From Folioceros fuciformis (taxonomy: Eukaryota), in contig JBNGIO010006258.1 in NCBI GenBank assembly GCA_049999805.1, positions 178,486-242,485 on the forward strand: a stretch of DNA of 64,000 nt. The letters are read 5' to 3'. Positions 1 to 49,738 of the stretch are shown one piece after another. Each line of letters opens with the position of its first letter. Position 1 is the first letter of the stretch. Position numbers and translations under genes: made by a program. The notes below the pieces were generated by a model, which saw only the letters and a list, made by a program, of their open reading frames with translations, was not told the DNA's origin and made no database searches.

Positions 1-176
1 GATGATGATGGCAGGACAGCCTCGGGAGAGGTGAGCAGGGATTGGGGTAACGACATGATGGGGGTGGCCGGGGATGGGGAGATGAGGGAGATGAGCGGTG
101 GGTAGGCGAGGAGGGAGGAGTTATGTGAGCTGGCTGGCTGGGTGATGGGGTGTCATGGGGAAGCAGGGGCAGGGCC

Positions 177-2580
177 TTAGAGGAAGGAGAGAGTGGTGGT
201 GTCCGGGTCGCGGGCTTGGAACCGGAATGTACCACTGCGATCGTCCTCGATGCTGGCCCAGCTGCCCTCCATCACTGTGGTGGCTGCTGGGCGGGAGTGC
301 AGGTCGATCTGGCCAGTGTAGTGCACAGGACAGGGCTTGCCAGGAGCGTACAGCTTCGTCATGCGGAGTCTCAAGATGTGGGACTGTCGGGACACTGTGC
401 CTGTGCACGAGCCACGTGCAAGCGATGTGAGATGGGGGGATAGGTGCCATGGAAGCATGGGTTGGAGGGCAGGAAAGGAAAGGTGAGGGAAGGGTGGAAT
501 GAATTGGAGTAGTGGAACACTGTGGTGATGGGTAGGAGAACTGACCCAGGAATGTGAATGTTCCTGCCACGTCGCTGCCGAAACCGAAGATGCGGTTGCT
601 GCTGCTGATCACCAGGGCACCTCCGTCCACCAGCTGAGTGCCTGCTGCGCTTCCGGGGTTGCACACCTCTCGGTAGCCGGTCCAGTGGGCTCCATAACCT
701 GCTGCTGCACCTGTTTCAACCTTGTGCAGGAAAAATGTATGGGTGTCAGAGGGCTCGAACATGGCCACCATGTCGTGGAAGGTCCAGTGGCCTCGGATCT
801 GCTCTTGGCCGTCTTCGGAGCTCCTGATGCCGTCGTATTGGAGGCGGTAGCTGGGGTTGTTAAGGTACTGCTTCCGGAGCACCATCCGATCTTCTACCAC
901 AAAGTCACCTGTGGGCGGGATGGATGTTGGCTCTTAAAAGATTCCTGGTAACGTCTAAGAGCAGTAGGACTGCAGCCAGGATTTGAGTGGAGGTCTCAGA
1001 GTGTCTCACCTTCCCATGTCCACTCTCCTAGGTAGTCCACTCCGAAGCCGCAGGGGCGTGTGTCGTCCATGAGGAATGCCTTTGCGCTCATTTGCTTCTG
1101 GCTCCTGCGTTCCAGATACCATCCTTCCCATGCCTCCAGCTCACCAGCAAAATGGAGCGTTTTCTGAAATAGTCACAATCAGCGTATGTAAGGCGGAGTC
1201 TGTGCGTCAGTCAGGCTCATGGGTGAGACTTGTGTACCGAGGTGATTGCTTGGGCTTCAGGGATGGTGCTGATGCCAGTGGACGGTAATGGAGAGTGAAG
1301 ATGGAAAGTGCCGTACTTCTGATGCTTCACATCAGACCATTTGCCCTCAATGGTGATGGAATTGGTGGGAGTTAGAAACAATTGTCCCCAGAAGTGCAGA
1401 CAGTGAGGGCGTATGTCCGGCTGGTACATCTTCACAGAGGTAATCTTCAGCACACGATATTCTTGAGAGTATGTCCCTGTTCAAAGATACCAACATGGGT
1501 TGTCATGCCTGGAGACAGGAGTTTTACGTTGTTGCTCCTTTTATCAGCAGCGCAAATGAATCCCACCTGTGTGCATGAATTCCCCTTTAGTGTCTGTACC
1601 AAAGCCGAACACAACGTTCTGGCTGGTGAACACGAACACCGTGTCGTCGGTGCTCCGTTTATCGCTGCCAGACTCCCAGTAACCAGTCCAGTTGTGTCCA
1701 ATTGCTGAGACCACAGACGAGGCGTCTCTTTGAAGCGAGAAAGCTCCAGAGTTGTCTGGCCCCGCTGACCATGATCCTTGGAGCACCTCCTGCCCTTTCC
1801 TCAACAATCTTCTTCCGCTGTACTGAACGGTGTAGCCAGGGCTAGTCACATATTGCTTCCGGAGCAGCACTTGGTGGGTGCCAGTGGTCTCACCTGCATC
1901 GCTCCAGCCCGTCAGCACATCACATCCCATCCAACAGCACACCTCCAGGGGCTTCACGACTGCCCGGGCATACCTTCCCACGTCCACTGTCCGATCGCGT
2001 CATCACCATAGCCACATAGCCTGTTGGTGCCGGTCCGGAACAAGGTAGCTGTCATACTGTATGTCAGCCCCTCATTCACGTAACTGCCCTTCCAGCACTC
2101 CAAAACGTTCTGGGAACGAGGCTCCTGCTGGGGTGCAGTCTTCGCCGCCTCAAGAGGCCTTCTCAGTTCATTTACCGTGTTCTCCTCGTTTACAGCATCA
2201 GGAACTGGGCTGTGGAGCTCATGTTTGATATCACCTGCCAACCTAGCCTCCTTTTGCACATCCTTGATCCGCCCCGTCAGTCTCCCAACCAACTGAGACC
2301 ATCTCTGCCTAGTCAGAACCGCGAGATGCCGAGGCACAGAACTGGACTGTTCCTCCCAAGCCAGAGCTTGCGTGAGCAAGCCTACAGCCTCCTTCAACAG
2401 AGGCTCCACGGCCTGCACCCAGTTGTGCTCACCCGCGCCCTGAGGCTCCAAAAGCACCCGCCGGAGCTCCTCCCACGTCCCTAACGACTTGGTGGCCTCA
2501 GCAGCCGATTTGCTCACATGCTCCAGCAATGCCATGACTCCCATCCCTGCAGTAGCTGCTGGGTCCGCCATGGCAGCCAT
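177..2580 (-). CDS. Uncharacterised protein, about 637 aa: N-terminal helical region plus 4 tandem W/G-rich beta-repeats (beta-repeat gene A)
   Basis: Hand-built exons 2580-1974, 1893-1567, 1476-1238, 1163-1010, 908-546, 400-177, all with GT..AG introns and frame-consistent (1914 nt including stop). Repeat motif WxGx[YW]...[FY]xTxxNxLxGxGxDxxGx[WF]xxxG...LxKxY...[YF]xG...[EQ]GxW...GxFxL. Collinear with the paralogue at 39264-41374. The start could instead be the ATG at 2571. Confidence 0.85.
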
Positions 2581-3220
2581 TCGAGCCTGTGCTCCAAGCG
2601 CGAGTCGGGCTGTTAGTGTCACCGGGACGATGATGCTCCAAGCTAAGCTTCAGAGAGGTGTGGTCTCTGCCTCTTCGGTGGTGATGAATCTCGTACATAC
2701 TGTGGGAGCCTGTACAGACAGGTGAGTGCTTGCTGACGGTGGTGATTCCAACGTCTGGAGAATCCTGTGACCTGGTCCCAATCCAGTACAACATGACCTC
2801 AGCTGGTTATGACTGGGCAACCACCTGGTGAAGGCATATTTTTGCCATCTACTACATATCTAGCCCTGAGGAGTTTGCTCGATCGGTGATGCACGGCTGA
2901 TCAAGATCCTTAGAGCCAAGCCGTCCTTTGGTGGCAGTCATGTATACCGCCAAAGCGTGAGTGGAAGTCGATTCAGCCCGAAACCAGTTTTATCTGACCA
3001 CTGCTGACAGAAGCATGTGACTTGTACTTTTGCACGACAACCTTAAGCCGGATTCCGCAATGACACGAAAATTGCATGCCACTGCGTATGATTGCGGTAT
3101 CCACTAAAGGCATTGCGGTATCCAGGCATGCAGACTGAGAGTTTGCAGGACCCAGCTAAAAGAGAATACGAGATAAGGATGTTGGACAGATCCCGCACGA
3201 GATGTCGTATCGTGTGTCGT

Positions 3221-4685
<1,465 letters not shown>

Positions 4686-4689
4686 TTCA

Positions 4690-5180
4690 CAAGGAATGAA
4701 AGTGAAAGCAGGGCATGACAAGGAAAGCTGGAAGGTCTTACAAATATGTCAGATCCGTCAGGTTCTCGATTTCGTCAAGTATAGTGGAATTGAAGTAGTA
4801 TTGCGCCATTTAGTCCTGCGAGCCGCACGGCTGGGTGAGCACAAATGCGGAACTGCAGGCACCTTACCTCCAGGAGGCAGGCCGTCAATTTGGGGAAAGA
4901 CGCTGACAAACTGACAGCTGAACAAGGTTTTTCAGTTTCGAGACATCGCTCGAGGAGGCAACAAGATCATTGTTGCCCAGATACCTGCATCACATATGAT
5001 CAAAGAAGTCAGAGACGGAGGCGAAATGTTCAGCAATCTTGCGCAGCGGGGAAACGCACTTTTGGACTGTCAGCCAGAAGGTGAAGGTATTTCCGCACAC
5101 ACACAGACCGGCCAGGAACCTTACAGCTGGCGAAGCTGACTGAGTTGGAAAAACTGGTCAAGGATTGTAAAGGACACCAG
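4690..5180 (-). pseudogene. Diverged direct-orientation copy of three LRR exons of the LRR-RLK
   Basis: Same-strand similarity to about 10404-10865 (e.g. cagctgaacaaggttt, cattgttgcccagatacctgca, ctggcgaagctgact.agttggaaaaact) with indels; roughly 80% identical by eye. Confidence 0.85.
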
Positions 5181-6965
5181 TAACGATTCGGACAGGCCTG
5201 AACAAATCGTCCAAGGATTGAACGGCAGTATTTGTATCCGATCTTGTTTTCTCCGGTATTTGCTCTTGCGGCACACGATTCGTTGTATCTTCCGGGCTAG
5301 CCGAGAAGCCCGGCCCTCATTTCCACTCGATTGAATCTGTAACGAGTCTTCCAGAAGCGCTGCGGCAGCACTGATCAGCTTGTCCTGATGGGGATTACCA
5401 TCTCTGTCAGCTTCTAGAAAGGCAGTACAGAATGCAATGGTTCTTGTCCGAAGGCAAGCTGTGAGGATCTAAAGCCGTTTTGTATATGTGTGTCGAGGGA
5501 CCACAACATCAAATCTAGATTATGAATTGTGTTACAGTCTCCAGGCCTTCTAAGTGGAATATTTGCATGCAGTATTAGGTGCGTGTTCTACAGCAGCTTC
5601 GTGTTCATGCTTCCAGGTGAAGCCATACTAGTTGTTGTCCACGTCGTTTTCGGCTGGTCAGGTTTTGGATTCGAGCCTTGAGTCCTGTCGCCTCCACGTT
5701 TCCGGCTCATGGCTCTACGTCTGATACTCGTGATGTTGGACTGTTACAATCTGTCAATGGTATTACCGAAGCAGAAGTTGTTCGAACTTGCAGAACTTCG
5801 AGAGTCGTGCCAGATTGGACAACTTCTGAGGCAGCATCTCGAAGATGCATTGTTCGTCCATCCGTGGACTTCCTTTTCGGTTTCACAAGCTTTTGCTCCT
5901 CTACTTTACAATCTGAAGAAAACCTTTACGTTGTGAGCCATTTGTTCTGTGCTTGTTGTAGGACTAGCACATGTCTTCCCCTTCATAACAGAGCACTTGA
6001 GACAGCCATTCGAGTTGCATCTACAAGCGATCAAGCTCCGTGACTGAACAAGCTCCTGACGCTCACCTCCGAAAAGGACATCGCATGCATGCTAACTATG
6101 GAGTACGACATCACCGGGCAACTGTTGTAACCAGAGAAACGACCCTCCACGTGGTGTGTGAATGAATGCTCTCGACCCTGAAAGGCTGCACGAAAATCCG
6201 CCTTCTCAGGTGTGTGAGGAGTATAGTTCCTACCCAAGTACTCTACACTTGCATGCAGCATAGAGATGGGTATGAGAGACGTGGTGAGAAAGCTGAGCGA
6301 ACCAGATCAGGAGACGGGAGAGGGAAGGGCAGGTACCATTTCCACCGCGTACCAGGACAGAGATCTGCAATTCAATTTTTGTAGCTGGGACTAGGAAAAC
6401 AGTGAAGGTATCATAGAGAGTGTTACCATACACCATCCTCAGACTGCGTCCTGATCCATAGAAGACTAAGTGGGAAAGTACAGGATTATGCCATCATACA
6501 CCTCCCGCGGCCGACGATTTCGTCCCAACTTTCAACGAGAGAATTGAATTGCAAATCAGTGCGGAAGTATCAATTTGCTTTTATAATCGCCTCCCCTTGG
6601 CCTCATCTGACCGAGAAATCTACTGCAGTTCCCACGCTGTTGAGATGGACACGCCCTGCAACAATTCGGCCTAACGTTCGCTCCAGCTTAAGATGAAGCT
6701 TGCAAACAACTTATGCAGCACTTAACATAGAGTGGTACTGACCCCAACGACTTCTGTAGTGGAAGACAACCTGCCAGCCATGTCCATACGGCATATCAGA
6801 AATGCGAAACCATCAACACCTTCAGGTTTCCGTACCTGCCCGAAGCAGCGAGTGCCCAAATTTACCTGTGATACTCGAACGTCTTCACTGAGGCATGGAG
6901 GACGGCTCCACATTGGCAGTCTGCATTGAATTCACAAGTACATAAAAGCAGCCAGTGTACGCTCA

Positions 6966-11799
<4,834 letters not shown>

Positions 11800-13810
11800 G
11801 CGGAGCGCGGAACTCGATCTCGTGTCACCAGAACGCATCCGATACAATCCGCTCTCCTCCTCTTCACCAACGAACCTACACAATCTGTCGACTAGTCTCC
11901 ACACAAATCTCGGATCCAACACGGTCACCAACAGCTTGCCGCACCGCTCCAAGCAAGCCACCACTCAGGGTCTCTCAAATCAAGGCTCCTCCTGAGACAT
12001 CGACACCCAGCCTCCAGCAGCTCGACCTCTCCGTCACCGGATCCACATTTCCACGCGAATCGCAGCTCTTCACCCAACACCCGATCCTGGCTCCACATCC
12101 AGCCAGCAAGCCGAAGAGGATCGCCCGAGCTGCTGGCTCTTCCTGCTGCAAAGCGATAACAAATCTGGCACTGCGACCGCTCCCCGGGATCGTGGTGCAG
12201 CCAATTCCGCCAGAGGCCTAGTGTTTGTCCTTGGTGCTGGCCCGTCATGCAGGATCCGGAGTCACGGCAATCAACCAGGAGCCGGCATGCGGATAAGGGC
12301 CAGAGCAGCAAGAGGGGCTACAGCCTCTTTCTGGCGTAAGAGACTCGCGGGAGCAGACCCTCCTGGCTGGCATTCGACGAGCATTTCCTATTCCTGGCGT
12401 TTAACTATTGTCCTCGCTCTACCCCTTCACAGAAGGATCAGTCGGGAATTTGTGTGGAGCCCCAACCGACCTTCCGCAAGCTGCGAAAGGTGCCAACCAA
12501 CTTCCCTGTACCACACATTCCTGCTCCTCCACGCTACGTCACGACGTAAATCCCCACGATAATCAAGCTTTCTTTAAAAGGACGCGATGGCGTACTGATC
12601 AACCCTGATCAGTCAGTCAATTCCGACAAGCTTCCCTTCGACGCAAAGATGGACTGTGAATTTTGTTTTGTTGTTATCCCGCAATAGTTGCTGGGTCTAA
12701 TCGGCACCGGCTCCCCCATTCCCTTCTGGGTGACCAAGCCACAGGAGCCCTTGAATTTCTGGATCAAAGGAATGATGGTGGCCGTGAGGGGTGAGGGTCT
12801 GTTGAGCGCAGGAACTGCTGGGGTTCACTGTCTGTGTAGATGGGAATGGGTGGGGGAGGACATCTCCCAAATCCCTAAGGGCTTCATTTAGAAGCTTCGG
12901 CGGATGCTGCCAGTTTTATAGCAGGAGCTGCTAGTGGTTAGGGAGCGCCGACGAGAGGTATTAATCCGTTTGCAAACGTCCGATGGCCAGCTTTCTCTTT
13001 GAGCTCATGATGGGGAATGACGGATTTGGATGTGGCATGGAATCTCTGAATATCAACGCTTCCAAGGTGTTTAGTGCTCCCGTAGCTATGGCGTCGAATT
13101 TCAGCAGGAGGAGAAGTTGAAGGTTCGTACTGATGTCTGGACTACTCTCAGGTAGTTTCTTCCTGCTGCTTACCTTGAGGATTTTGGAAACTTTGTCGGT
13201 CGTGTGTTCCCTAGTGTGACAGTGATCGTTGCGGATGGAAGTTACTACTGGTTTATGATGTTGTTCATAACGGAATTCATCGACTTGAGAAGAAGATCAA
13301 GGATAGTGGATAGCAACGCTGTTCAAGAGGATAGCTGTCCAAGTGCTGGTAGGGAACTCCACTCCCTCCTTGGTGTGGAAATGCAGAGTTGATAACCGAT
13401 GGAGTGTAGGCAGGAATGAATGAGCTAATCGTAGCTTCAGTACTGACGCATTTGGTTTCAAGAAGCGAGGCTGGATTTGCTGCCTTCTGGATGAATGATT
13501 CCCAGAATGATTCCCAGAATGATTCCCATCTTGTCCAGCATTCAAGACTGGAACAATATGTCTCTAATTGAACTCACGTCCGAGGCCTGCCTTCATCACG
13601 AAGCGGCATTAGGCAAAGCGGAAATTGTGTAGCCTACGCCCCATCTCCCCGATGGTGAACAACTGGAATTGAGGCGTGGAAGGTCTGAACAGGTGATAAC
13701 AATTTGTACGTGTTGACGGAGCTGCCATAATCTTCCCAGAATGTCCAGTGACATTGGAATGCTTTATGGATGGAATGACATTGTTCGTTATTCCCATGTC
13801 AGAGTAACAC

Positions 13811-15579: not shown

Positions 15580-16145
15580 GGGAAAACCATAAACCCAAAT
15601 TGGTGGGGTGCAAGATGCACTTGGAAGTGCTCCTGAAGTTGAATTACGATACTTCGGCTGATAATGTGTGGAAACACTGCTCCCACAGCAATAGGACGCA
15701 CTCTTTAGGTGGGCTTTTCCAATGCAAGTAGCCTACTTATTGCCAAAACTTAAGAGATTCGATTGAGAACTTCGCTCCTAGCCGCAGTAGCCGCTAGTAT
15801 ACAAAGCTTCGAAAAACCACTTCATGAGATCCTCAGGATAAAAATAATCTCAAAAATCATCATAAACTATACCAGACAAACCCCCTAAAGAAAGTCTCGA
15901 CGCAAAAGAGAGTGTATGCCCAAAAACATCCCTATCCAAGCCAAAAGGCTGCTTGACCGTGTGGTCAAGAGATCTTGCGATATAGTGTCATGAGGTTTTG
16001 GGTGAAGGACATGAAGTGTAGCAATGGTGTTCTTAGTTGTAGATGCAGCCGGCTCAAGGCGCAATGCTTAAGCAACCCATGCATATTCACCATCCTTGCC
16101 GAACATGAGACATCGCTTGAGATGCGCTGTAAATGGGTCATGGCA
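15580..16145 (-). mobile_element. Decayed non-LTR retrotransposon (CRE/R2-like RT), 3' part
   Basis: Minus-strand translation gives GKDGEYAWVA*AL...TIATLHVLHP and RPIAVGAVF..IISR...HLAPHQFG, typical of the RT N-terminal region of early-branching RLE-type elements; stops and frameshifts present. Confidence 0.7.
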
Positions 16146-16350
16146 AGTGAAGCGAGAAGAATCTTACGAACTCGCTCAGCAGAAGTACACACGGAAGAAG
16201 AAGTCTATTATGCACAAAGCATTACAATATGTAGGCCTGATAAGCAGTTGTAGAAAGAAGTTAAATAACTGACTAACCTGAATAACTACCTAGCCCCTAT
16301 TCACACCTAGCTAGATAATAAGAAACACTAATAAACTATCTCCTTTCTCA
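16146..16350 (-). repeat. 3' LTR of the copia element (205 bp)
   Basis: Near-identical to 20673-20873 (about 8 substitutions and one 4-bp indel); preceded on the - strand by the polypurine tract AGAGGGGG (16358-16351). Confidence 0.95.
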
Positions 16351-16648
16351 CCCCCTCTGTTTCGCTATTATTCTAGCCAGCTAATTCAAACTTCGTGTTT
16401 GTTCACAACCGCTGTCGATAGTAGAAGCTTCGCTTGCTCATATGATGCTCATGAATCCTTCTTCAAATCTGTTCGATACGCCCTGCGTTTTGAGGCCGTA
16501 TGGATTCAATACTGCCTCCTGGCAGGCTTGATGCGGCTAGGGCCGTTTTTTCTGCCGCCCAGTGTGTCCTTATAATCAGCGCCTGCCTGGAGGATTTCCA
16601 TGTGAGCCATATGCGACTTGGGCCACGCTTTCTCCAAGATAACGTCTG

Positions 16649-19050
16649 TCAGGCCCAATCCCTCACATGCTTTTGATGCAGCGGACCAGGCAGAGGTTTC
16701 GTCAGGATGTCTGCCAGGTTTTCCTCAGTCGCCACATACCTCAAACTCACTTCTCCCTCAGATATGAGCTGTCGGATATAGTGGTGTTTAATTTCGATAT
16801 GTTTTGTTCTGGCGTGATAGATAGGATTCTGGGATAGAGCTATCGCTGATTGTGAATCACACAACAGCTCAATAGGATGCTCATATTTCTGGCCTAACCC
16901 TTCTGCAAATTTCCTGTGGGATACAAGTTCTTTTGCCGTCTCAAAGCAGGCAGCATATTCGGCCTCTGTCGAGGAGAGGCAAATGGTCTGAAGGCGCTTA
17001 CTGCTCCAAGAAAGCGAGGCAGAAATCGCCATTACTGCATACGCAGCTGTCGAGCGCCTCTATTCAGCATCGCCGGCCCAGTTCGAGTCCGTAAACCCTA
17101 CCAAGCTGAGCATATTGTTTTGTGTTGCTTCATTTTGCTGTTGCCAATAGACTAGTCCTAGATTTTGTGTTCCTTTTAAATAGTGCATGATGCGCTTCAC
17201 GGCTGTCCTGTGATATGTGCCTGGGTTCTGGAAGAACTGGCAACAGAGACTAACAGCCTTACTGATATCGGGCCTTGTGCTCACTTGCAGGTGCTGCAGT
17301 GAGCCACAAGCCTGCCTGAAGGGCACTAGAGACATGGCTTTTATCTCAGCTTCAGTTGTTGGACAGGTTTCAGAGGTCAGCTTGGCTGATGCAGCCATTG
17401 GTGTCTGAACGGGTTTTGCTGTGCTCATATTATACTTGATTAAGATTTGTTCTACATAAGCACTTTGGCTTAATGAACTATAGTGATCCTGCCAGCTGCG
17501 TTCGATTTTGATCCCTCGAAAGGAGTGTAGCTCACCCAAATCACTCATGGCGAACTCAGCTGCCAGCATCTTTTTCACCTTGGCCATGGTGCCTTGCAGA
17601 CTATTCAAGACTAGCATTGTGTCGTCCACATATAGTGCCAGTATGACGAAGCCGTCTTGTCTTGCAGTTTGTAGATGTTGCTGTCACTAGGATTCTTCTC
17701 GAATCCACTGGCTATAAGGTATGTGTCAATGCGATTAAACTAGGCTCTATGGCTCTGTTTTAATCCATACAATGCTCGAATAAGTTTGCACACAAACGTT
17801 CGTTGATTCTCAGGCACCTCGAGACCTTCAGGTAAATCCATATAAATTTCCTCTTTTATGTAGCCATGCAGAAATGCTGACTGTACATCGAGTTGATGCA
17901 GATGATAACTAAACTTCGCTGCTAATGCCACCAGAAATCGAAATGAAGAGAGTCGAAGAACCGGCGAGAAGGTCTCACCGAAATCCTCCCCCTCTCTCTG
18001 CGAGAACCCCTTTGCCACGAGCCTAGCCTTCTTTTTATCGAAGCTCCCATCAACTCGGTATTTGGTTTTAAAAACCCATTTGCACTGAATGGGTTTGCGG
18101 CGTGGTGGGAGTGGCACTAGCTTCCATGTGCCATTCTTATGGAGTGCTGATAACTCTTTGTTTATAGCTTCAATCCATGCTGGGGCATCAGTACCTGATA
18201 TAGCTTCAGAGAAAGACTGAGGATCAGCTCCTCTCTCTGCTTCGGCAACTGCCTCTAGCATGGCTTGTTTGATAGTGTTTCGAGGTGCTGAGGTTAAGAC
18301 GAAGATATATTTATCTTTACTGACACTGCCTGTATAGTCAGGGTTAAATTCGAGAGGAGGTTCCTTCCAATCTCGGATTGCAGGTCTGTGCCGAATTGAC
18401 CGCCTTGGTTGATTATCTGATGGCCGACTCTGGTCAGCCCCCTCTGGATTCGTGTCATCAGACCCTGACGAAGGAGGCTCCATATCAGCTGGTAAGTTTT
18501 CCTCTCCTGGGGCTTCGCTATTGCTTCCATCAAGATTATAATTATCATAGTCAGGGAAAACAACGCCCGGCTGATCACCTTGCCCCTCTGGCTCCAAGGC
18601 AGGGTCTGAAGATGTATCCAGAAAGAAGTCGGTTTCGTTAAACCGGACGTTGCGGGCATAGAGAATAGTAAGACTGGTGGGGTCTAATAATTTGTAGCCC
18701 TTGGTCGTTTCGCCGTAGCCCACAAAACGAAGCTTAATTGTAAGTGAATCCCATTTGCTACGCAGATGCTTGGGGATGTGGGTGTATGCAGCACATTCGA
18801 AGGTGCGAAAGTAAGAAATGTCAGGCACACGACCAGACCACCGGTACATTGGTGTTTGCCCTGATGGTTTTTTCGGTACACGGTTCTGCATATGTACAGC
18901 GGTTGCAACTGCTTCAACCCAATATGACTTGGGCATGCTAGCCTGCGCCAGCATACTTCTAGCATGATCATTCAGATCTCTGTTGCGCTTCTCTGCTACG
19001 CCCATCTCTTGAGCAGTGAGGCGGTTGTCTAGCCGACAAGCATGCCACAA
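16649..19050 (-). pseudogene. Copia pol remnant (integrase C-terminal part, reverse transcriptase, RNase H), interrupted
   Basis: Motifs GVAEKRNR, WVEAVATAVH, CKWVFKTK, KARLVAKGFSQ, HQLDVQSAFLHG, LYGLKQ, YVDD, GFTDSNWAG, LSSTEAEY, RTKHIEIKHHYIR, ADILTKPL; split across ORFs 17740-19050, 17060-17629 and 16649-17032. Confidence 0.93.
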
Positions 19051-19109
19051 TGTGGCACCCTGGTGAGCCTTGAGAAGGCTTCACCATGATACGATTGCCC
19101 GTGACACCA

Positions 19110-19945
19110 CACTTCTGCTCATCCAGTTTCCTCTTGCGACACTCTCTCCAGAAGTGTCCTGGTTTTTTATAATAGGCACATTTTTGTGATTTCTTGTTGC
19201 TATTGCTGGATGACTAGTTGGGAGATGGACCAGCTCCAGATTCTTTGCCTGCAAACTTTCTAAACCGATTGCCCTTTTGCATGAACAGGGCACCATCTTG
19301 CCCTGTGGGGACACCAGATGAGGAGTTCATCTTTCTTGTGGTTTCATGTTGTAACATTGCCGACAAAACAGATGAGACCGTGAGGCCTACCCTGCTCTGC
19401 TGTGCTGTCACAAAAGCACCCCAGCTTTGGGGCAAGGCTGCCAGTAGTATTACTGCGGCCTGGGCTTCATCAACCACTGTCCCCTGATGTGCTAGACGGG
19501 CCTTGGACATACGAAAGGCCGTAGTGAAAGCATCAACGGTATCTGTTTCTTGCATTCTCAACTGGTAAAAGTTTTGAGTAGCAATAACCATAGATAATGT
19601 GTCTGTTGCTTGATATGCAGCTAGCAGACGATCCCAAGCTTCCTTCGCAAGAGTGATGCCATAAAGGTGGTGCATCGTTTCACTTGCAAGGCACTGCATT
19701 AGCAGTGTAAGGACCTTCTGATCTGTCTTATCCCACTCATTCATCGAACGGGTTTCCGCTGCGGTGGGAGCTTGGGCGTTTGCTGGTACAGGTCTAGTTG
19801 CTGACCCATCTACATGATCCATCCAGTCCTTGTCACGAAGAATAGATTTCACCCTCATGCTCCAGATTTCAAAATCTTTGCCTGTGAATCTATCTTTCTC
19901 CTTAAACTCAAACGTGAGATAATTGTTCACGGTGTTATGTGCCAT
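19110..19945 (-). pseudogene. Copia gag with degenerate zinc knuckle
   Basis: RFTGKDFEIWSMRVKSIL...W, AKEAWDRL, LLAALPQSWGAF; in-frame TAG at 19216-19214 followed by CAYYKKPGHFWREC (CCHC knuckle with the second Cys changed to Tyr). Confidence 0.88.
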
Positions 19946-20660
19946 GTTTTGATTCTGTCTTAGATCAGACTTTGGTTTCGGAAGAAGGGGATAAGGAACC
20001 TGTGGAGGTGCTGGAGGGTTCTTTTTCCTTCTTCTTGATGTTGACATACACCTATAGGGTCAGGTTTGTGTTCACGGGTGAACTGCTACTTGATCTAAAC
20101 TTGTTGAGTTCAGGTAAGGTGTCTCCCGTGCTTTGCGATATGTAGCTGTCTCTCTCAATACACTGCTGAAAGCATACTTGATTAACGCCGTGGTTGATGT
20201 TTTCACAGGCGCATTCCAGGTGATTAAGGAAAAGCTCAAGTCTTTCAATTCTACCAAGTGCAGCACGAAGGAGATACCCCTGATGCTGGGTAAGATTTAT
20301 CAAGTGATCAAGTCTTTCGTCCGTGTTTCTTAGCTATCTAAATTCTTCCACTAACCTTCTTGATGAATGTCGCTCTGCTTTGTGCAGGCGATTCGTTTTC
20401 CTGGCTTCACAGTTATAGTCTTTGTAGGTGGTCTCAGTTGAGGATCTGGAATAGCAGCAAGTTCGATCTACTAGGCCAGGAAGGCGTTTATCCTGGCGAT
20501 CCAAATTGCTGCTGCCGGATCAGTTTCGATCTCCTATAGAGCACTGTGGGGAGATTGTTCTCCTGGCTGATTGTTTAAGAATCCAGAAGAGTGATCTCTC
20601 CCTTTGTGGAGCCATCAGGCTCTCATAATGCATTGAGTTCCCGGCATCGTCGCCTTACAG

Positions 20661-20672
20661 GCTCTGATACCA
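20661..20672 (-). other. Primer-binding site (initiator tRNA-Met)
   Basis: TGGTATCAGAGC on the - strand, directly after the 5' LTR. Confidence 0.93.
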
Positions 20673-20873
20673 AGTGAGGCGAGAAGAATCTCACGAACTC
20701 GCTCAGCAGAAGTACACACGAAAGAAGAAGTCTATTATGCACAAAGCATTACAATATGTAGGCTTGATAAGCAGTTGTAGAAAGAAGTTAAATAACTGAC
20801 TAACCTGAATAACTAGCTACTATTCACACCTAGCTAGATAATAAGAAACACTTATAAACTATGTCCTTTCTCA
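20673..20873 (-). repeat. 5' LTR of the copia element (201 bp)
   Basis: Starts TGAGAAAGG on the - strand; pairs with 16146-16350. Confidence 0.95.
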
Positions 20874-37168: not shown

Positions 37169-39263
37169 TCCCCGCTCACAAAAGCAAACAAGAAGGGCAG
37201 CTTCCAAACCCCCGCAATCAAGCAGCAAAACACCCGAAACAACCAGCTCCTCCGTCAGGGTCACCGGCATTACCTCCAAAGGCTCCCCTGGCAGCCGTAA
37301 CAGAAGCGAGGCAGCCAGAAAATGCGAAGGCGCACACGACCAGGGCGGCGATGGACGCAGCAGCCGGGACGGCGATGGAGATGGCGGACGAGGGAAACGA
37401 GACGCGACAGGGGCAAAAGGCAGCAAAGGATGGAGACGCGGAGGAGCAGGGCCCGAGACGGGTTCCGTGCAGCAAGAGCTGACGATGGCGCAGAAGGTGA
37501 TGAAGAAGACCAGAGCCAGAGCAGCAGAGAGGCACAGGTAGGGAGAGAGAAGGCGCGAAAACCAGAAAAGCGAGAGAGAGACGGTTAACATAACTGCTCT
37601 GCTCTAACCGCGGTCAGCTGCAGCTCATGTCAGCGTAACCCGTAGTTAGAAAGTGGAGGGAAAGGACAGCCAGCTAGAAATGGGGTTGTCTGTCCGTGCA
37701 GGGCAGTGAGCGCATGGGAGAGTCGAGCACCTCCGCCCGGGGGGCCTTGGGCTGGAGCCTGGGACTCTTGGGAGTGGAGCGCCAAATTCAAATCCCGGGT
37801 CGGCCCGAGCCTCGCTCCTGCCCCCATTGCACCTGAGACCTGACCCCGACCCTGACCCGCCTCCCATCGCCTGGCTGGCCCTCACTCAAAAGTGGTCTGT
37901 CCCCCCTGCCGCTGGCCGCTGCCGAATGCGCTTGCGTCATTTGAATCCCAGTACTGCTTGGGTCTCGGGGACGAAACCACTTGGCTGCGTTGCGTTTCTG
38001 GAATCGAGCTTGCGCTTGCTTTGCAATCAAGCCAACTTCTACACGTTTTGCGTCTACGCCTTGCTGTTGGACGATGTGAAAATGCTGCGTAAATGTGCAA
38101 TATTTTAATTCGAAAAATATCTCTTCTTATAGGGGTGGTACTCTTGTCCGTTGTAGATACGATACGAGGGTGTGGCAAGAGGGAGGCCTTACGCAACAAA
38201 TTCCAGACCTTGATAAAATTGGAAGATGCGCCGAGAGGAGGGGATATTTCTGGTCGGGGAGTGCCGATTCGAATTCAAAATGTGAATGCCGTCTGGCGGG
38301 CAGCGCCGGGCTCGGCTGGGGAGGCATGGGCCAGGGGTCAAGGGTCACGCCTGCGGTATTCATGCAAGATACGTGGGCATTTATGCGGCTATGTTTGGTA
38401 GAGCAGTGAGGTAAACGTTGTGACCAGTACCTCTTGATGAGACTGCACTCTTGGGCGACTCACAGTCTTCAGTCGGATAGGGACTACAGCTGCTAGATAT
38501 GTAGCAAGGAACAGACGAAGACGGAGAGGGACGCACCTCCTCACACCCGAGGGCGATGGGACGAGAAAGGGACGATGACAAGAGAGTCAGGTCACATTAG
38601 GTGTGCAGTACCTGAGTAAGCGGGACTGTCCTCAATTCTCCCTGCAGGCATGTACATACACTACACTGTGGGCTCATCTCTAATCATGGATTGCCCCAAA
38701 GTGGGCTACCTCATTGCTTGGGGTTCGGCAAGGAAGGACACGTACAGTACGTCTTGGACTAGGTGGTAAGTACATGTTCTTCCGTCCAGAGCTAGCAAGC
38801 GAGTGTGAGATACATACTGTACGTACTTGCCGTGGTTGCCTGATACTTCACCTGGGGTTCAGAGGAAACACAATCTCGTCCTACGACGGCATGGTGATCA
38901 ATTTTAGTAACATTTATCATTCGTTCGTATCGTACACAACACAAGACAGCTACGCCATCCACGAGGCAAGATTATTTTTTACAGTCAAATACTAAGTACA
39001 CCTGCACGCAGAAAGCATACAAGGCGGACCATCGGATGCAGGAAGGAATATGACCAGGAGTATGTTACAATATCAGACTCACGACCTGCTTTCTTGTATA
39101 CATGGGACGAGACTCGGGTTGCTGCAAACCTGGCGCCTGACAGTGCGACACGCTTGCGCCCGCGAATTCACGGGAAGTGGGGCGCCCGTGCAGTCGCAAC
39201 AATTTCCAGGAACAGCTCCTGCAGGAACGCTGTACAAGATGGGCCTCAACCTGCTATGAGTCA

Positions 39264-42200
39264 TCACTGCCTTGGCACTGGCCCTGCCAGCGATATGAAG
39301 GTCTCCACATCGAAATCTTGAGTTTGAAAGGCGAAGGTACCATGTCCCCTGCCGTCCACACTTGCCCAGGAGCCTTCCATGACTCTCGTTGAGGATTCAA
39401 GACATCGCAAATCAATTTGCCCACAATAATGAACCGATGCTGACTTGCCAGGTTCATACACCTTCACCATTTTGATTCTCAAGGTGTAGTAGGGCTCACG
39501 AGTATAAGAACCTGCGTCCAGAAATGCCATCATAATTCAACAGGATCGATCACACAATGATCTTTGGAGCGTAAGCTCATGCCCAAGCGTTGGCCCAAAG
39601 AACGAGAACAACACCACAATTTGGTACCGAGAAGTGCAACAGCACAGAGCAGACTCACCTAGATATGTGTAGGTCCCTTCTACATCGCAGCCAAAGCCTA
39701 ATATACGGTTGTTGTTCGTGAAAACAAAATCGGAGTCGTTAGATCCGCGTTTATTGCTGTCGGTGCTCATTTCACAATAGCCAGTCCATTGTTGTCCATA
39801 ACCTTTTCTTCCAGCTGCCTTATCAATTTCCAGGCGAAATGCTTGGGGATTCCGCCGAGGTGCATTCGCATTCACTTGCCAGTGACCTTCGATCACCTCA
39901 ACATCATTCAGGATGCTTCTAACACCCTTGTACAGGACCCGAGACTGCGGCCTGTCCAGATATTGCGTCCGTAGCTCCAATTGATTGCCGTCCGCATCAC
40001 CTGATACCGGAGATGGAGGATCAACATTCGGGTCTTTGCACATCAATGTCCAGACATGGAAAGGATACAGCAGACTCGGTGAGTTGGTTACCTTCCCAGG
40101 TCCACTCTCCGCTTGAATCACGACCAAACCCACATAACCTATTACTGCTTGTCACATACAGTTCTGCAGTCATTTCGAGAAATCGCCCATCTTGTTGGTA
40201 CCCTCCTTTCCAAACCTCCAGCTCAGTAACACTGAGCGGGAGCTACAAAGAGGAAAAAGAAAACGGGCGTCAATAATGAGAACTCTCTTCTACAAGAAGT
40301 TCCAAGACTTGACAGATGACACTCGTCAACAAGATCAGGACCTAACCTCCAAAATCAACACATACCGGCACACAGCTGGAGACTGAGGGACAGAGTTCAG
40401 CACAGAAATCTCGTGTCTCCAACCGAAAGATCCCATTTCCAGGATCGGGGCCAGGTGCAACATTCAACCATTTTCCCTCCATGAGAGTTGAAGCCTGGAA
40501 TCTTATATATAATTGTCCCCAGTACATCACACACGGAGAAGTGTTGGGTTCGTAGACCTTCAAGGTAGTGATCTTCAAAGTGTTTCCTTCTTGGGCATAT
40601 GTCCCTGCATGTCGACCATACTCAGATGGGGTCACAGAATGAGCAGCTCAATTCAACTACAATTAACCGTGTGACAATCCTCTGAAAGGAGGACTGATCA
40701 ATGTCCCGACAGTGAAGAAAACATGCCATTACGGGATCAATTGCAAGCCTTTGCTGTCAAGTAGAAGATAGAAAAAGGACTTCTCGATAGACACCTGTGT
40801 GAGTGAAGCTGCCCTCCATATCACTTCCGAAACCAAACATCTTATTATGACTGGTGAAAACAAACTCCGTGTCATCTGTCCCACGTCGACCACTGCTGAA
40901 CTGCCAATAGCCTGTCCAAAGTTGTCCGTAAGCTGTATTCATTGATGACGTCTCTCGCTGAAGGGAGAATTTTCCATCGACCCTCCCATGACTTGTCAAG
41001 TTTGACCAGGTCCCTTCCAGTACCTCCTTTCCCTCTTCGTTAAAGCATTTTGTACCAAAGTATCTAACACGGTAACCACGCTTGTTTATGTACTGCTTGT
41101 GAAGAGAGACTTGATGATTGCCAACATATTCACCTATTTCAACACCCAATGAAATCCTAATCAGGAATCGATCACAATCTACCATTCGCTGCTACTTGGA
41201 CAAAACAGAAACGCCACACACACCTTCCCATGTCCATTGTCCACCAGCGTCACTCCCATAGCCACAAAGCCTATTACGGTTGGTAAGATACAAAGCTGCT
41301 GTCAGGCTTCGCTTCAATCCATCCTGCTCATGCCAGCCCTTCCAAGACTCCAACACACCTGGGATACGGGGGCTCTGCAAACATGACAACTCACTGTCAC
41401 TTCACTCCCTGTCCAGCTAGAGAGGATTCAACACGATGAAGATGAATGCTATGAACGTACAAGCACACACCAGTCTGTTCGAAGACAAGGGACCAGGAAA
41501 CACTCCAGGAAATCCCCTTGTTGCAAGTCGAAATCGCCCATGTGCATTATGTCCAACTCCACCAAAAATGCCTTCCAGGACTGTTGGAACCCCTGACAAC
41601 CCTTTGAACAGCTGACCCCAGTAGAGTAGACAAGTCGAATCACGCTGTGGGTGGTCATAAAGTTTCAAGAAAGCAACTTTAACCCGGTTCCCTTCCTGCG
41701 CATAGGTGCCTGCCACAACAACCACACAACACAGGAATTGAGAGCATGTAAGACCAATCTAAAATCAATTGCGTATGAAAAGTTTGAGCTAAAGAACTCA
41801 CCTAAGTACATGAAGCGGCCAAGGTTGTCTTTCCCAGAGCCAAATAGCTTGTTATGGCTTGTGAAAACAATGTCACTACCCTCAGTATTGAGGTCCATCA
41901 TGGTCTCATCCTGCTCCCAGGAGCCAGCCCACTGTTGAGCACGCCCTGCTTTTGGAGATGATAAAACCCTTTCCAAATGAAATCCACCTTTCTTTTGATT
42001 GCTATCACTTAGACGGCTTTGGTCACCCTCCATGTACTCAGTCCCATTGGTCTTGAGATGTCTTTTGCCAATGTATAGCACTTGCTTGTCCCGCTGATAT
42101 ACATACTGCACTCGGAACTTCACATCATCACCTGAACAATGACCTGCTTACATGTAGAAAGGAACAAAAGTTGAACGTGAGAAATCTTCCTGATGGGCAC

Positions 42201-44078
42201 GATTGACCACAAGCCTTGTCCGTCACATGTAATTGTCCTCGTGTAAGATCTACAAGTCTAATATAGCTTTTCATCCAAGTATTGTGTGCATCCAAACGTA
42301 AGGCATCTTTCGGCCGCTGATTTGAAGGGCATGACCTACCTTCCATAATCCAGTCGCCACTTGCATCACTGCCATGGCCATACAACCTGTTTTGGCTGGT
42401 TACAAACATCTCCAGGTACATGTTGAGGCTGAGGCTGTCAGATCGATACCAGCCCATCCAGGACTGCAGCTCACCAGATATCTGGCACATCTACATGCAC
42501 TACACAACATCAGAGGGCTGTTTATGCTGCGAGAATCTTGAACATTCGACAAAATTTCCCCACTTTGAATACCTGGGCATTCTCTTCCATATCCCGATAA
42601 AGCATACCAGCCAAGCTTGGTTCATCAAGGTCCTTCAACAAGGTCAAGGATGAGCCGCCACGACTCTTTTGCTCCTGCAAGGCGCACCTAGCAGAAACAA
42701 GTAACTTGGTACAGCAAGAATCTGATTCTGCCCATTTGAGCACATTTTCCAGCATCGAAATGGCCTCCTCGTACTCCATCTGATCAACTTTCCTTGCAGC
42801 TTCATCACGATATTCGCGCCGGCGGGTCAAGTAGCTAGCCTCCTGTTCTGGAAACATTTCAAAGAGCCTCCCCCGGACATCCACATCATCGCATATAATG
42901 GAGAAAGGATCACGGTTGTCGTAGGGCCCTCGAGTCACATTGTGGTCGATTATAGTCCAGCGATCATAGGTGCGACCATCATTGCACTTGACAGGATCAA
43001 CTAGCGTCTCCCATGTGAGCGGATCCTGGTACCACTGAGGTGGCGTAGAAAACTTTTGCTCATGGCTTCTGGAGGCCCCATTTACTGTGGCCAAAACCTG
43101 CATGGTAAATTACTCGACTGCATCAGAAAGTGCTTTGATCATTGCAGACCACTCCCTCTTACGTACCACTGCACGAAACAGCTGCCAGAAGGCCATCTCA
43201 GAAGTTGCCCATAACCCTTGACCTTGCAGTTACCAATTCTGCGTGTACAACGTAACCAAAACCACACGAGCCAAATCCGAGCTCTTACGTCATCTAGGAA
43301 GTCCCCAGAACAAGTGCCCTTGGCAGCCTCCTCGATCCTCTTGCACGTCCGGATATCCAAACCAGGCTGTAACACATAGCGCAAAGCAGAAAGCCTCTGC
43401 GCCGAGCTAGTATGCTCCACGCAGGCATGTCCCGAACGAGGTTCAACAACTCTCAATTCCAGCAAAGCCAGGCCCTCCAGAAACATGGCGTCTCCTCCCT
43501 TACTAACAAGACCTACCTGCATTCCCGCACTGCAAGTAAGCACCAAGACTGGCACCATCCACAACCACAAAACCGCAAGCACAACAATTTTACACAACTC
43601 CTCACATCTAAAGCGGTAACAAGAAGAGCAATCTGATAGCTATAGAACAAGCCCTCCTGAATCCTGAGCAGGTCTTGCTCAAAGAACCCTAGCCCCGACC
43701 CGAGCACAAAATCCCCCGTGTTCAGCTCGCATTTCAGAAACTCGGCAGCTCGGTCCAGATTAGTAAGCAACAATCCTGCACGCAAAGCCACAGACACGAA
43801 TGACTCATCCTCCTTCCTGCAGCAACGCGAACACAAACACCAACATTCGCACGCATCCATTGCCCCGCACCGAAACAGAGAGCCGACGGCCTACTGCCAA
43901 TGACCGTGTCCCGCAAAACAGGCAGTTTTGCCTCCAGCTTTTTGGCGAAGATCTCAATCTGCAGCGCATTGCTGGATTCTGCAACCTTGTCATTGAAGAG
44001 AGCTTTGCAGCGTTGTAGGAGGGCGTGGACGTGTTGGGCAGCTGCAACCACCTCAGGCGTGGTGCACAGTCCTGTCAT
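39264..44078 (-). CDS. Uncharacterised protein, about 1113 aa: helical N-terminus, U-box, TPR-like helices and 6 tandem W/G-rich beta-repeats (beta-repeat gene B; putative E3 ubiquitin ligase)
   Basis: Exons 44078-43891, 43816-43606, 43516-43289, 43097-42573, 42490-42340, 42131-41802, 41709-41471, 41374-41224, 41133-40795, 40604-40366, 40242-40092, 40000-39659, 39511-39264; frame-consistent. U-box-like PPQWYQDPLTWETLVDPVKCNDGRTYDRWTI...GPYD; TPR-like EYEEAISMLENVLKW. The first donor is non-canonical (see findings), so the 5' end is less certain than the rest. Confidence 0.82.
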
Positions 44079-44639
44079 CCCTTCTGCCGGATGCTTCAGC
44101 GGGCCGGATTGGATTGGATCGGTGGTCTGGATGCCGAGCTTCGAGAAGCGAGGGACTGGCGACTCCGGATTCCTTCCAGGCTCAGTGTGCCTTGCGTTTG
44201 GAGGTCTATCAAGGAGACGAAATTAATCTGCCTTGTGGGCCAAGCAATGCGAACGATTCCAGGGCGTGGGCGTCTTTGACCTCTTCGTAGACTACTTGAA
44301 AATTTTCACCTCACGCCTTGCTTGCCCGGAACAAATATTCGTGCAGATACAGGTAAGTCTGCCCATTTCCCCATTCCTTTCTAATGTGAACACAAGGGTG
44401 GAGAAATCGAGCCGAGAACTGGAACTAGATTGTGTCCTCCACGCTTCATGGATAAAGAGTGATAGCCCTGTACTGAGCCACATTCATCGAGATCGAGAGG
44501 AACGAGCTGAGAGGAAGGGCTGGTGTGAGTAGACATCATCAACGGCCCAGGATGGGAAAGGTGGGATAAAAAATCATTGAATATTGTAAGAGGATTCAAA
44601 CACGGAGGCCACTCTACGCCTCTTCGTCAAACCATGGCT

Positions 44640-45410
44640 TTGTTACACTTTCACACAGTGGAATACTTCAGCAAGAACTTGTGGAACGTTCTGCCAAAAG
44701 CCTCCTTTCATGTTGTAAGCAACAACGAAATACTCATCATCTGTCGCACTAACTTCCGACCAAGGAGATAATTGGTGAAAGAAAATCAAGAAGTCCCCAG
44801 CAACTTGTACAGCGTGCAAGTACAAATCATCCCAAATTAGAGTGTCATGTCGTAATTTGTGAGGCGGACACTCCTCTCCAACCTTTGCCCATTGCTTCCA
44901 GTGGTTGTCCACCATCCAAATACCATTGGAGTGGCAAAGCAGCAGTCTTTCATGGTGCAATACCAGACAATAGCCATTGATCCTCTCCCAAAAACTTGTC
45001 CAATGCACAGGCAATGCTACTTTATGCAGGTAACGCGGACCATCCTCTATGTTTAGTTGCACCAGCTCAAAAGGTATAACATCATTATGAACCAAGGTAG
45101 TGTACAAGCTGTCACCAAAGGCCATAACGTCATCAACTCATTCCCTCCAGATAAGAAGACCCTCCACTTAAAAATACTGCTGTTGTAAATAGCGCAGTAA
45201 TACCGCTGCGATCATGTAGTGCCATGATAAAAGCAGATCCTAGCATTTCACAAAAACCTTGAAGCAAGGAAAGCTTTCATTTGCCTTTTTTGTCCCCCTG
45301 ACTAGAGCGGTACGAAGAACAACAAGCCTCTTGAGCATCTTTGCTCGTTCCTGTGGTCCATCGTAAATGACACGAGCTGAAGGTCGTGTCATTTACCAAG
45401 GACCACGGGC
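44640..45410 (-). pseudogene. Truncated F-box gene copy (C-terminal part only)
   Basis: GPRYLHKVALPVHW, LLLCHSNGIWMVDN, VQVAGDF, YFVVAYNMKGGFWQNVPQVLAE match the F-box at 47433-48854; frameshifts upstream and no F-box motif. Confidence 0.88.
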
Positions 45411-46355: not shown

Positions 46356-46903
46356 CGACATTCAGACACCTGTGACAGTTCCTGCTCCATTCGCAGAACT
46401 TTCGCCTCCAACTCGGTTGTCTCACGTCTTTTTGCCGGCGAGAAATTGGTTTGCTTCCATCTTCCTGGCCAACTTCCTGAGTTCTTGGACTCTTTTCCTG
46501 TTCCTGTGTCAGCAAGCAATGCCTTTTCCGCACAAAGATCTTGCTTGACAATCTCTGGCTCAGCCTTCAACCTTGGCAACATGCCACTCCTTTCGCAATG
46601 TCTCATTTTGATGTCCCTGCACTGTCAACCTGAGCTTCAAATCATAAAGCTCTGCTGATAGCTGGCGGATTCTTTCTGCTGCCAGTGACTCCGCTGCTGC
46701 CCCTTCCTTCATGTCCAGCAATTCGGCCTGCAATGCAATGATTGTTCTTGCCGTCTCCGTCTCAGCTTGCGCGCGGGAGGTGTCCATGTCTCGCTCTCTG
46801 GCCAGCGCTGCAGCATGTATCATTCCATGTCCCGTCGTATGATCCGTTCCTCTCCTCCTCCACGGACCTGGTACCGAACTGGACCTCAAGCTTCTTCAGC
46901 TCC
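46356..46903 (-). pseudogene. Two fused fragments of the kinesin-12 coiled-coil exon
   Basis: 46903-46577 matches about 57486-57082 (KKLE...GSYDGTW...[20 protein letters not shown]); 46576-46356 matches about 53719-53501 ([11 protein letters not shown]...ELSQVSEC). Confidence 0.92.
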
Positions 46904-47312
46904 CTCCCGCAGCAACGAGCACACAAACGCCACCATTTGCACGCATCCATTGCCCCGCACCAAGACTGAGAGGCGACGGACCTGCCGATGACCATGTCCT
47001 GCAAAACAAGCAGTCTTGCTTCCAGCTTCTTGGCGAGCATCTCAATCTGGAGCGCATTGCTGGATTCCGCAACCTTGTCACTGAAGAGAAATTTGCAGCG
47101 TTGCTGGAGAGCAAGGAAACATCGGGCACCTCAGGCGCAGGTGCAGAGTCCCGTCATTCCCTCTGCCGAATGCTTCATCGGGCCGGATTGGATTCGATCG
47201 GCGGTCTGGCCCCCGAGATTGCAGCAGCAAGGGACTGGCGACTGCGGATTCCTTCGACGTTCAAGGTGCCTTGCGGACTCCTTGGACATCTACCAAGGAG
47301 ACGAGTTTAATC
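46904..47312 (-). pseudogene. Copy of the 5' region, exon 1 and intron 1 of beta-repeat gene B
   Basis: Matches about 43812-44229; ATG at 47157 reads MTGLCTCA* (frameshift) versus MTGLCTTPEV in the intact gene. Confidence 0.9.
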
Positions 47313-47432
47313 TCAGGGCGGTTTAAAACATTATTGAATGTAACCGATGGGAAACGTGGATTGAGAAATTAATAAATATTCTAAGAGATTTGAAATACCA
47401 CGACTACTCTACGTAAGCAACCTGGCTTCGTT

Positions 47433-48854: not shown

Positions 48855-48867
48855 AATTACTGCTATA

Positions 48868-49083
48868 AATCTTGAAATCTTAGGCCTTTTTTTACAAATT
48901 TGAGGTATTGTAAGACACCACTCTTTAGGGTTGTAGGCCAATCTTGAAATCTTGGGCCTCCTTCTGCAAATCTGTGGTGTTGTAAGACACCACTCTTTAG
49001 GGGTGTAGGCCAATCTTGAAATATGAGGCCTCCTTCTACAAATTCGTGGTGTTGTAAGACACCACTCTTTAGGGTTGTAGGCC
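48868..49083. repeat. 72-bp tandem repeat, 3 copies, just upstream of the F-box ATG
   Basis: Unit aatcttgaaatcttgggcctccttctgcaaatctgtggtgttgtaagacaccactctttaggggtgtaggcc. Confidence 0.92.
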
Positions 49084-49738
49084 TTGCTCTGGATGTATTA
49101 TAGTAAAAGTTTTCCCAACCAGTATACTATGCACAAGCCTTTTTTGGAACAAGCCTTTTTTGGAACAAGGAAATATAACAATGGACGGTGTGTAAGCCTC
49201 TCTTGCCTCGTCAAACAAGGAAGCAAGACTTGACATCGTTTTGTTGTTGAGAAGTATTAAATGATGTGCTTACTTCAGAGAAGGAAACAAGAAACAAGAC
49301 ATGACACCGTTTTGTTGTTGGAAAGTGCTAATTGGTGTGCTTACTTCAGGGAAGTGACAACAATGGATCACAAAGAAAGCAAGTATGTCTCAGACCAAAA
49401 TTCTCATTGCATCCATTGGAATAGCAGGTACTTTAGAAATATCCTTTAAACTATTTAAATAATCTACAATATTAATTTTGCTAGGTGTGAGATTGGTGGC
49501 TAAAGTGGCTAGGTCTTTTTGTGACACACCGTCGATCCCATGTTGCTCACGTCAACCAGCAGGGCACACATTTGCCTCATGCTAAGTTTGGAGCTTTTCT
49601 GTGCACAATGATTCTACATGGGTCTTCAAGTCTCAAGGTCCAATAATACATATCAATTTTTGATCAATTTAAGATGAATATAGTATTACACATTTGTACA
49701 AGCTTCTGTACATTCTCAAGACGCAGGTACCTCCTGCA

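Follow-up and report, generated by a model that had tools for sequence, protein, structure and literature searches.

The window analysed here is the whole 64,000-nucleotide stretch of Folioceros fuciformis contig JBNGIO010006258.1 from position 178,486 to 242,485. It contains two related genes on the minus strand, gene A and gene B, which share a repeated C-terminal module. All motifs quoted in the first-pass annotation of this DNA were recovered by six-frame translation on the minus strand, in one cluster at 177-2580 (gene A) and a second at approximately 39,260-44,080 (gene B). The distance from the start of gene A to the stop of gene B is 36,684 nt, which agrees with the second family member described at about 37 kb. 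The model of gene A comprises six exons and five GT-AG introns of 74-145 nt on the minus strand and encodes 637 amino acids with a lone terminal stop:

2581..2756, minus strand, transcribed and unspliced leader, contiguous with exon 1 (X1 contig piece 1972-2756)
1974..2580, minus strand, exon 1: helical head (residues ~1-124, window 2580-2209), linker and first half of unit 1
1567..1893, minus strand, exon 2: second half of unit 1 and first half of unit 2
1238..1476, minus strand, exon 3: second half of unit 2 and linker
1010..1163, minus strand, exon 4: first half of unit 3
546..908, minus strand, exon 5: second half of unit 3 and first half of unit 4
177..400, minus strand, exon 6: second half of unit 4 and stop codon

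Four sequence runs (X1-X4) were aligned to positions 1-12,000 of the window; gene A was covered by X1 and X2, but not by X3 and X4. The X1 contigs are 99+% alike to the window, their pieces being listed without differences, and X2 stems from a related organism that differs by ~6-11% depending on the piece. Exactly the five introns predicted for gene A are skipped in one X1 contig and in one X2 contig. These splice joints, together with similar joints in the neighbouring kinase gene, led us to take both runs as probable RNA, since none of those listed is recorded as RNA. The X1 contig continues beyond the start of the window, 3' of exon 6. At the opposite end, exon 1 and the sequence upstream of it are unspliced in the X1 contig mentioned above as well as in an X2 contig that reaches 3080. 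Both cross an in-frame stop at 2652-2650 in the leader, whose single ATG (at 2698) is out of frame. Hence, the isoforms represented in X1 and X2 have no upstream coding exon, bearing in mind that contigs drop rare isoforms, and a hidden upstream exon with a U-box is ruled out for the assembled isoforms. Together with the absence of any Pfam match to the U-box (PF04564) in the exons and open frames of gene A, this supports its original description as a gene without a U-box.

Of the X2 indels listed in gene A, every one whose length is not divisible by three falls upstream of the ATG; the one listed in the coding part is a 6-nt in-frame insertion at 698 in exon 5. For exons 4-6, the 36 differences listed between X2 and gene A divide into 18 synonymous and 18 non-synonymous ones, which yields a dN/dS of ~0.26 (binomial p 2e-4) with site ranges set by the analyst. 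With five of five introns spliced in two organisms and a dN/dS of this size, gene A is a real, expressed gene under purifying selection, and its interpretation as a pseudogene is ruled out. Two refuting conditions named in the first-pass annotation, absence of transcription and an upstream exon with a U-box, thus did not refute it in these contigs. The first-pass annotation had suggested selection on both genes; this was confirmed for gene A, which is the gene that the figure covers.

Gene B consists of the following parts:

43289..44078, minus strand, N-terminal helical exons with tentative junctions (~44078-43905, 43812-43606 and 43516-43289)
42573..43097, minus strand, U-box exon (PF04564) and the following helical hairpin, TPR-like by eye
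39264..42490, minus strand, barrel exons (nine exons, six units; units 3-6 at 41374-39264)

The match to PF04564 (28.4 bits against a cut-off of 21.4, E 1.9e-6) identifies gene B as a U-box protein with a predicted E3 ligase activity. Pfam returned no TPR family at E up to 10 for positions 42573-42860 (hairpin of gene B) or 2110-2580 (head of gene A). The last ten exons of gene B form an open frame of 904 amino acids. In the first intron (43894-43816) the donor and acceptor that look best do not match in phase, which renders the first three exons tentative and points to an unusual junction, an assembly error or damage. The claim that both gene models are free of stops is therefore valid for gene A and for the last ten exons of gene B. 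The closest database relative, P0001, the product of a Nothoceros aenigmaticus transcript, is the orthologue of gene B (62% identical over 519 columns) and is 46% identical to gene A.

Upstream of gene B, positions 46900-47313 and 47502-47985 match 43810-44229 and 44661-45158, respectively. This local duplication copied exon 1 of gene B (81%, now frameshifted) and, with it, the 3' portion of an F-box gene (47436-49097). Pieces at 46357-46903 match a long open frame of 2012 codons at 52299-58334 on the minus strand, for which Pfam gave only one weak row of coiled-coil type (Fez1, below cut-off).

A profile of the repeat detected four units of ~95 residues in gene A and six in gene B. Units A1, A2, A3 and A4 are closest to B3, B4, B5 and B6 with 54, 52, 39 and 49% identity, respectively, A3 being just one point nearer to B5 than to B3, and a tree of units recovers the same pairs. 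B1 and B2 take weak or basal positions in this tree, which bears on whether gene A lost parts or gene B gained them. Furthermore, four phase-1 introns interrupt the identical aligned codon in both genes, and both have a phase-0 intron within the corresponding linker; gene A lacks an intron that gene B has ahead of its unit 3. The proposed correspondence of the four repeats of gene A to repeats 3-6 of gene B is thus supported by identity, tree and introns alike. Synonymous sites between the two genes are saturated (pS 0.75, pN 0.34). Per unit, the Nothoceros protein shares 52-78% of its residues with gene B, compared to 39-54% for gene A and gene B. As it is nearer to gene B than gene A is, the duplication predates the split from Nothoceros. 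From these comparisons, gene A is an old paralogue of the last four units of gene B that most probably arose by local duplication. It is not the only other member of the family, since a third gene with these units was found on contigs C6171 and C6151 (loci L011 and L020). This gene starts directly with a barrel, is therefore headless, and is the counterpart of another Nothoceros protein. It may be one gene split over two small contigs, and the piece on C6151 ends in a beta-rich tail which has no Pfam match and appears beta-trefoil-like by eye.

Neither the repeat nor the head of gene A belongs to a Pfam family, according to searches with 13 exon pieces, 132 frames or proteins and 27 proteins. 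No NCBIfam family for the repeat was found among 11 proteins, and when two barrel profiles and the head were compared with PDB sequences, the best E was no better than 0.05. Scanning with the Nothoceros protein returned 31 relatives at E up to 0.001. Units were detected in 28 of 34 proteins (gene A, gene B, the Nothoceros protein and the 31 relatives), 76 in total. The organism was named for six of the 21 proteins looked up: Nothoceros (two), the liverwort Calypogeia fissa, the fern Ceratopteris richardii, Fabomonas tropica and the choanoflagellate Salpingoeca infusionum. Many relatives consist of barrels alone. Partner domains among the 31 are TIR_2 (two proteins), PLAT (one) and aquaporin (MIP, one), and the Calypogeia fissa protein carries a sub-threshold MLKL_N head (E 0.0013), the only one of the 31 to do so, before a barrel pair. 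Judged from these architectures, the barrel is a mobile module with varied partner domains, some of which are of immune type. In P0021 and P0023, one of them from Salpingoeca infusionum, TIR_2 is interleaved with three barrel units. P0006, P0007 and P0020 form a family of liverwort type, in which a weak MLKL_N-like head is combined with a conserved helical domain in the middle and a single barrel pair; we regard this family as a better cell-death candidate than gene A.

A 12-row barrel alignment matched none of 3977 longer proteins, which is a weak negative since longer relatives are known to exist. Prokaryote genome scans with P0016 and with an alignment of middle-domain patterns only (alignment A1) returned no relative; these scans are insensitive and silent on the origin of the module. 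In the literature, judged mainly from abstracts, we found no published description of the repeat or of the tail-swapping U-box family described below, which could be mentioned in subscription papers or supplements such as the domain tables of hornwort genomes.

The fold of the repeat was approached with a single-sequence model of P0001, which is poor (mean pLDDT 32) and in which residues 12-102 extend from the last part of one unit over the greater part of the following one. In this model, residues 12-102 match the designed barrel 6czj (Z 8.0, rmsd 2.5, 87 aligned), Cap15, by its title a cyclic dinucleotide receptor (Z 6.3, rmsd 2.9, 81 aligned), shwanavidin (Z 5.8, rmsd 3.2, 79 aligned; avidins 5.2-5.8) as well as lipocalins and Gid-complex chains (Z 4.7-5.2, Gid-complex chains 4.7-4.9), values that lie within the range given by a common arrangement, as do those for the head of gene A. 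Foldseek found no match in the PDB at E 0.001 for the barrel model or for the head model. Faint sub-threshold Pfam rows for Avidin or lipocalin-like families occurred in six of 23 barrel proteins; the Avidin row itself (PF01382, 17.8 bits against a cut-off of 24) appeared in one and was missing in the other 22. In the Atlas, which compares ESM features, an Avidin-bearing cluster scored 0.81. The repeat is similar to the calycin-like barrels of avidins and lipocalins in its length of ~95 residues, its eight predicted meander strands, its unspecific Z values of 4.7-6.3 and the faint Pfam hints. It differs from them in that it has no significant sequence match in Pfam, NCBIfam or the PDB and is arranged in large proteins as odd/even pairs in tandem. 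An eight-stranded avidin/lipocalin-like barrel is weakly supported by these models, as a consistent lead and not as a demonstration.

The U-box exon of gene B (U-box and hairpin) has counterparts at five other genomic loci with 42-52% identity. These are distributed over contigs C6317 (three loci), C5477 and C4447, and the copy on C4447 has a stop inside the match. Their tails are as follows:

L025, sub-threshold SPRY
L026, many tandem EF-hands
L027, two SPRY domains
L028 and L029, no recognised family

The N-terminal helical exons of gene B are clearly common to three of the five loci. Homology to the heads of these loci was clear for exon 2 (0 of 500 shuffles), weak for exon 1 (4 of 500) and not demonstrated for exon 3 (58 of 500). 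No barrel units were present at the five loci in the 6-10 kb examined for each, one stretch of which was one-third N. The head of the family, which may be MLKL-like, had no match to the liverwort and fern heads. In the family of gene B, therefore, head and U-box are constant and the tail is swapped between SPRY, EF-hands and barrels. The first-pass annotation had described a shared C-terminal module with swapped N-terminal heads. This applies across the barrel family, but is reversed in the family of gene B; modular shuffling is real and affects both ends.

The head of gene A was modelled from the single sequence as four long helices (residues 1-124, mean pLDDT 55, pTM 0.42), again a poor model. 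Its best structural matches are generic bundles such as chemoreceptors, vinculin and apolipoprotein E (Z 9-10), and the top match (Z 9.7, rmsd 3.7, 125 aligned) is a generic adaptor/sensor bundle, with Z values in the unspecific range mentioned above. The head is single-copy in the genome, and none of 501 candidates was a homologue of exon 1 of similar length. It also had no match to the N-terminal exons of gene B or to the head of the U-box family.

At roughly even odds (probability about 0.5), we propose that gene A encodes a non-catalytic cytosolic adaptor, a ligase-less binder paralogous to the last four units of gene B with a four-helix head of its own. A local duplication before the Nothoceros split would have produced gene A without the U-box and with this separate helical head. 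By analogy to avidin-, lipocalin- and Gid4-type barrels, its two barrel pairs may bind a small ligand or the end of a peptide in their cavities, and the helical bundle would connect what the barrels carry with a partner protein or with further copies of A. The assignment of the barrels as the putative binding part is based on their fold class and on their place as an interchangeable tail of an E3 ligase. In gene B, they could serve as the substrate-choosing tail for ubiquitination within a tail-swapping E3 family, whereas gene A would bind without ubiquitinating. Its proximity to gene B would then be a remnant of the duplication and not a working pair. Gid4 acts as a substrate receptor; we propose Cap15 and Gid4/Gid10 as functional analogues of the barrel repeat. 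Both the ligand binding and the adaptor role of gene A are functions that we infer. In favour of this interpretation we count barrels that occur alone, with MIP or PLAT, or in the headless third gene; against it, the HeLo/SesA-type neighbours of the head and the joining of the barrel to TIR or to an MLKL-like head in relatives.

The latter observations would fit a single-chain sensor-executor that acts without gene B: on sensing a ligand, the barrels of gene A would set free an MLKL/HeLo-type four-helix bundle, which would then oligomerise and damage membranes. The nearest named clusters of the head in the Atlas are HeLo (0.89), PigL_N/HeLo-like (0.86) and SesA (0.86), scores that are below threshold (<0.9, at most 135 of 256 shared features) and only a lead by the grading of the tool. 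According to PMC9815663, HeLo, HeLo-like and SesA domains have the MLKL four-helix core in common. The four-helix model with its hydrophobic and amphipathic first helix, the weak MLKL_N head before the barrel pair of Calypogeia fissa, two relatives with a like layout and the presence of Cap15 among the barrel matches point in the same direction. However, Pfam contained no family that matched the head of gene A at E up to 10, MLKL_N, RPW8, HeLo and HeLo-like included, and MLKL, HET-s, RPW8 and ZAR1 were all missing from the best 50 matches listed in either VIA search with the head. It is also unlike the liverwort and fern heads (hhalign 0.2%, 45 of 500 shuffles), and gene A is a single copy under purifying selection that has not expanded in the genome, as far as counts that are lower bounds can tell. 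We consider an executor function of gene A unlikely.

A closer comparison of the head with gene B suggests another alternative, namely that gene A is a trimmed copy of gene B whose head is the decayed post-U-box hairpin and which acts as a decoy that shields gene B or its substrates from ubiquitination. The annotation had noted no visible similarity of the head to the N-terminus of gene B, and this is nearly correct, except for a faint likeness of residues 57-86 to the post-U-box hairpin (pairwise E 0.008, hhalign probability 2%). Residues 62-122 compared to the post-U-box helices gave z 3.4 (6 of 500 shuffles), BLASTP produced a single alignment that runs from residue 63 through the barrels against gene B from the hairpin onward, and in both genes a hairpin-like segment directly precedes the first barrel. 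A six-sequence hairpin profile, one of several profiles used, scored the head with only 3.3-3.7 bits in two competing alignments (15-20 of 1000 shuffles). Moreover, the head is modelled as a four-helix bundle and not as a hairpin, and barrels that are merely 39-54% identical make common substrates doubtful. A decoy function thus appears improbable.

It may also be speculated that the barrel is an undescribed eukaryote-wide sensor which was plugged repeatedly into immune and ubiquitin outputs (TIR in the choanoflagellate, an MLKL-like bundle in the liverwort, the U-box in hornworts), and that gene A is an NLR-free, HeLo/MLKL-like cell-death receptor restrained by gene B, itself a member of a tail-swapping hornwort ligase family. 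We regard this combination as a long shot of about the same standing as the decoy.

Gene A and gene B are separated by a kinase copy and an LRR receptor kinase, by a copia element, and by genes for a peroxidase, a chalcone-isomerase-like protein, an oxidoreductase and a DUF4057 protein. No Pfam match to NB-ARC or NACHT was present in the scanned exons and open frames of either gene. With their location on the same strand, the lack of NB-ARC and of expansion, and the unrelated genes between them, gene A and gene B look like an old local duplicate. The linked immune pair suggested in the first-pass annotation, with A as executor and B as the E3 ligase that restrains it, is very unlikely: two members of a small family have remained within 37 kb since before the Nothoceros split, gene B has a U-box and, in other organisms, TIR and MLKL-like domains accompany the module. 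Against the pair, the two genes lie on the same strand and do not share a promoter, the copia element and at least five unrelated genes separate them, a third barrel gene resides on other contigs, and no barrel gene was present in the DNA examined around those relatives of gene B that carry other tails.

Paired NLRs are adjacent, usually head-to-head genes with a shared promoter. Gene A and gene B resemble them in being related genes of a single region that have a module in common and differ at their N-termini, but they have neither NB-ARC nor LRR, share one strand and are separated by 37 kb with many genes. A combination of UND, U-box and ARM repeats is a plant U-box E3 ligase architecture. 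Gene B is comparable to such ligases in its N-terminal helical region, its U-box and its repeated C-terminal module as a putative substrate binder; it differs by six beta-barrel units in place of ARM repeats and by genomic relatives with SPRY or EF-hand tails, and gene A differs by having no U-box. With the MLKL, RPW8 and HeLo executors (PMC9815663), gene A shares the modelled N-terminal four-helix bundle and the HeLo-type nearest clusters, whereas it has no Pfam match, no kinase or NB-ARC, and generic bundles as best structural matches. In NLRs of non-flowering plants, diverse N-terminal domains are swapped on a nucleotide-binding core (PMC11218826); in the families of gene A and gene B, both ends are shuffled. 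The proteins of Calypogeia fissa (CAM6099590.1) and Ceratopteris richardii (KAH7432594.1) contain an odd/even barrel pair as in gene A, and in the tree of units a single clade (support 0.87) unites the even units from liverwort, fern and hornwort. They differ from gene A by having one barrel pair and not two, and the weakly MLKL_N-like head of CAM6099590.1 shows no detectable relation to the head of gene A.

Gene A represents a new architecture around an unnamed domain, with a putative function, and the immune pair is unsupported. As the repeat is combined with varied partners in organisms as different as hornworts, a liverwort, a fern, Fabomonas and a choanoflagellate, it is a candidate for a new binding module. 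The U-box family, with a constant N-terminal part and swapped tails, offers a small natural system in which to follow how E3 ligases acquire new substrate receptors. Should the head of gene A kill cells, this would reveal an NLR-independent receptor design in bryophytes, which at present is a lead and not a result.

Further observations concern the DNA next to gene A. Positions 3221-4683 (plus strand) and 7682-9145 (minus strand) form an inverted duplicate of 92% identity that corresponds to the kinase part of the LRR receptor kinase. The plus-strand copy has an in-frame stop near 3510 and is arranged head-to-head with gene A, whose ATG is ~640 bases away; positions 3305-3662 of this copy are represented in X1 by an unspliced contig. 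A copia-type LTR retrotransposon with gag and RT frames in pieces occupies 16144-20873, and its 207-base terminal repeats are 94.7% identical. The multi-exon LRR receptor-like kinase itself (5540-12000, minus strand) is spliced in X1 and X2, and its joint at 8482-8643 has GC-AG ends.
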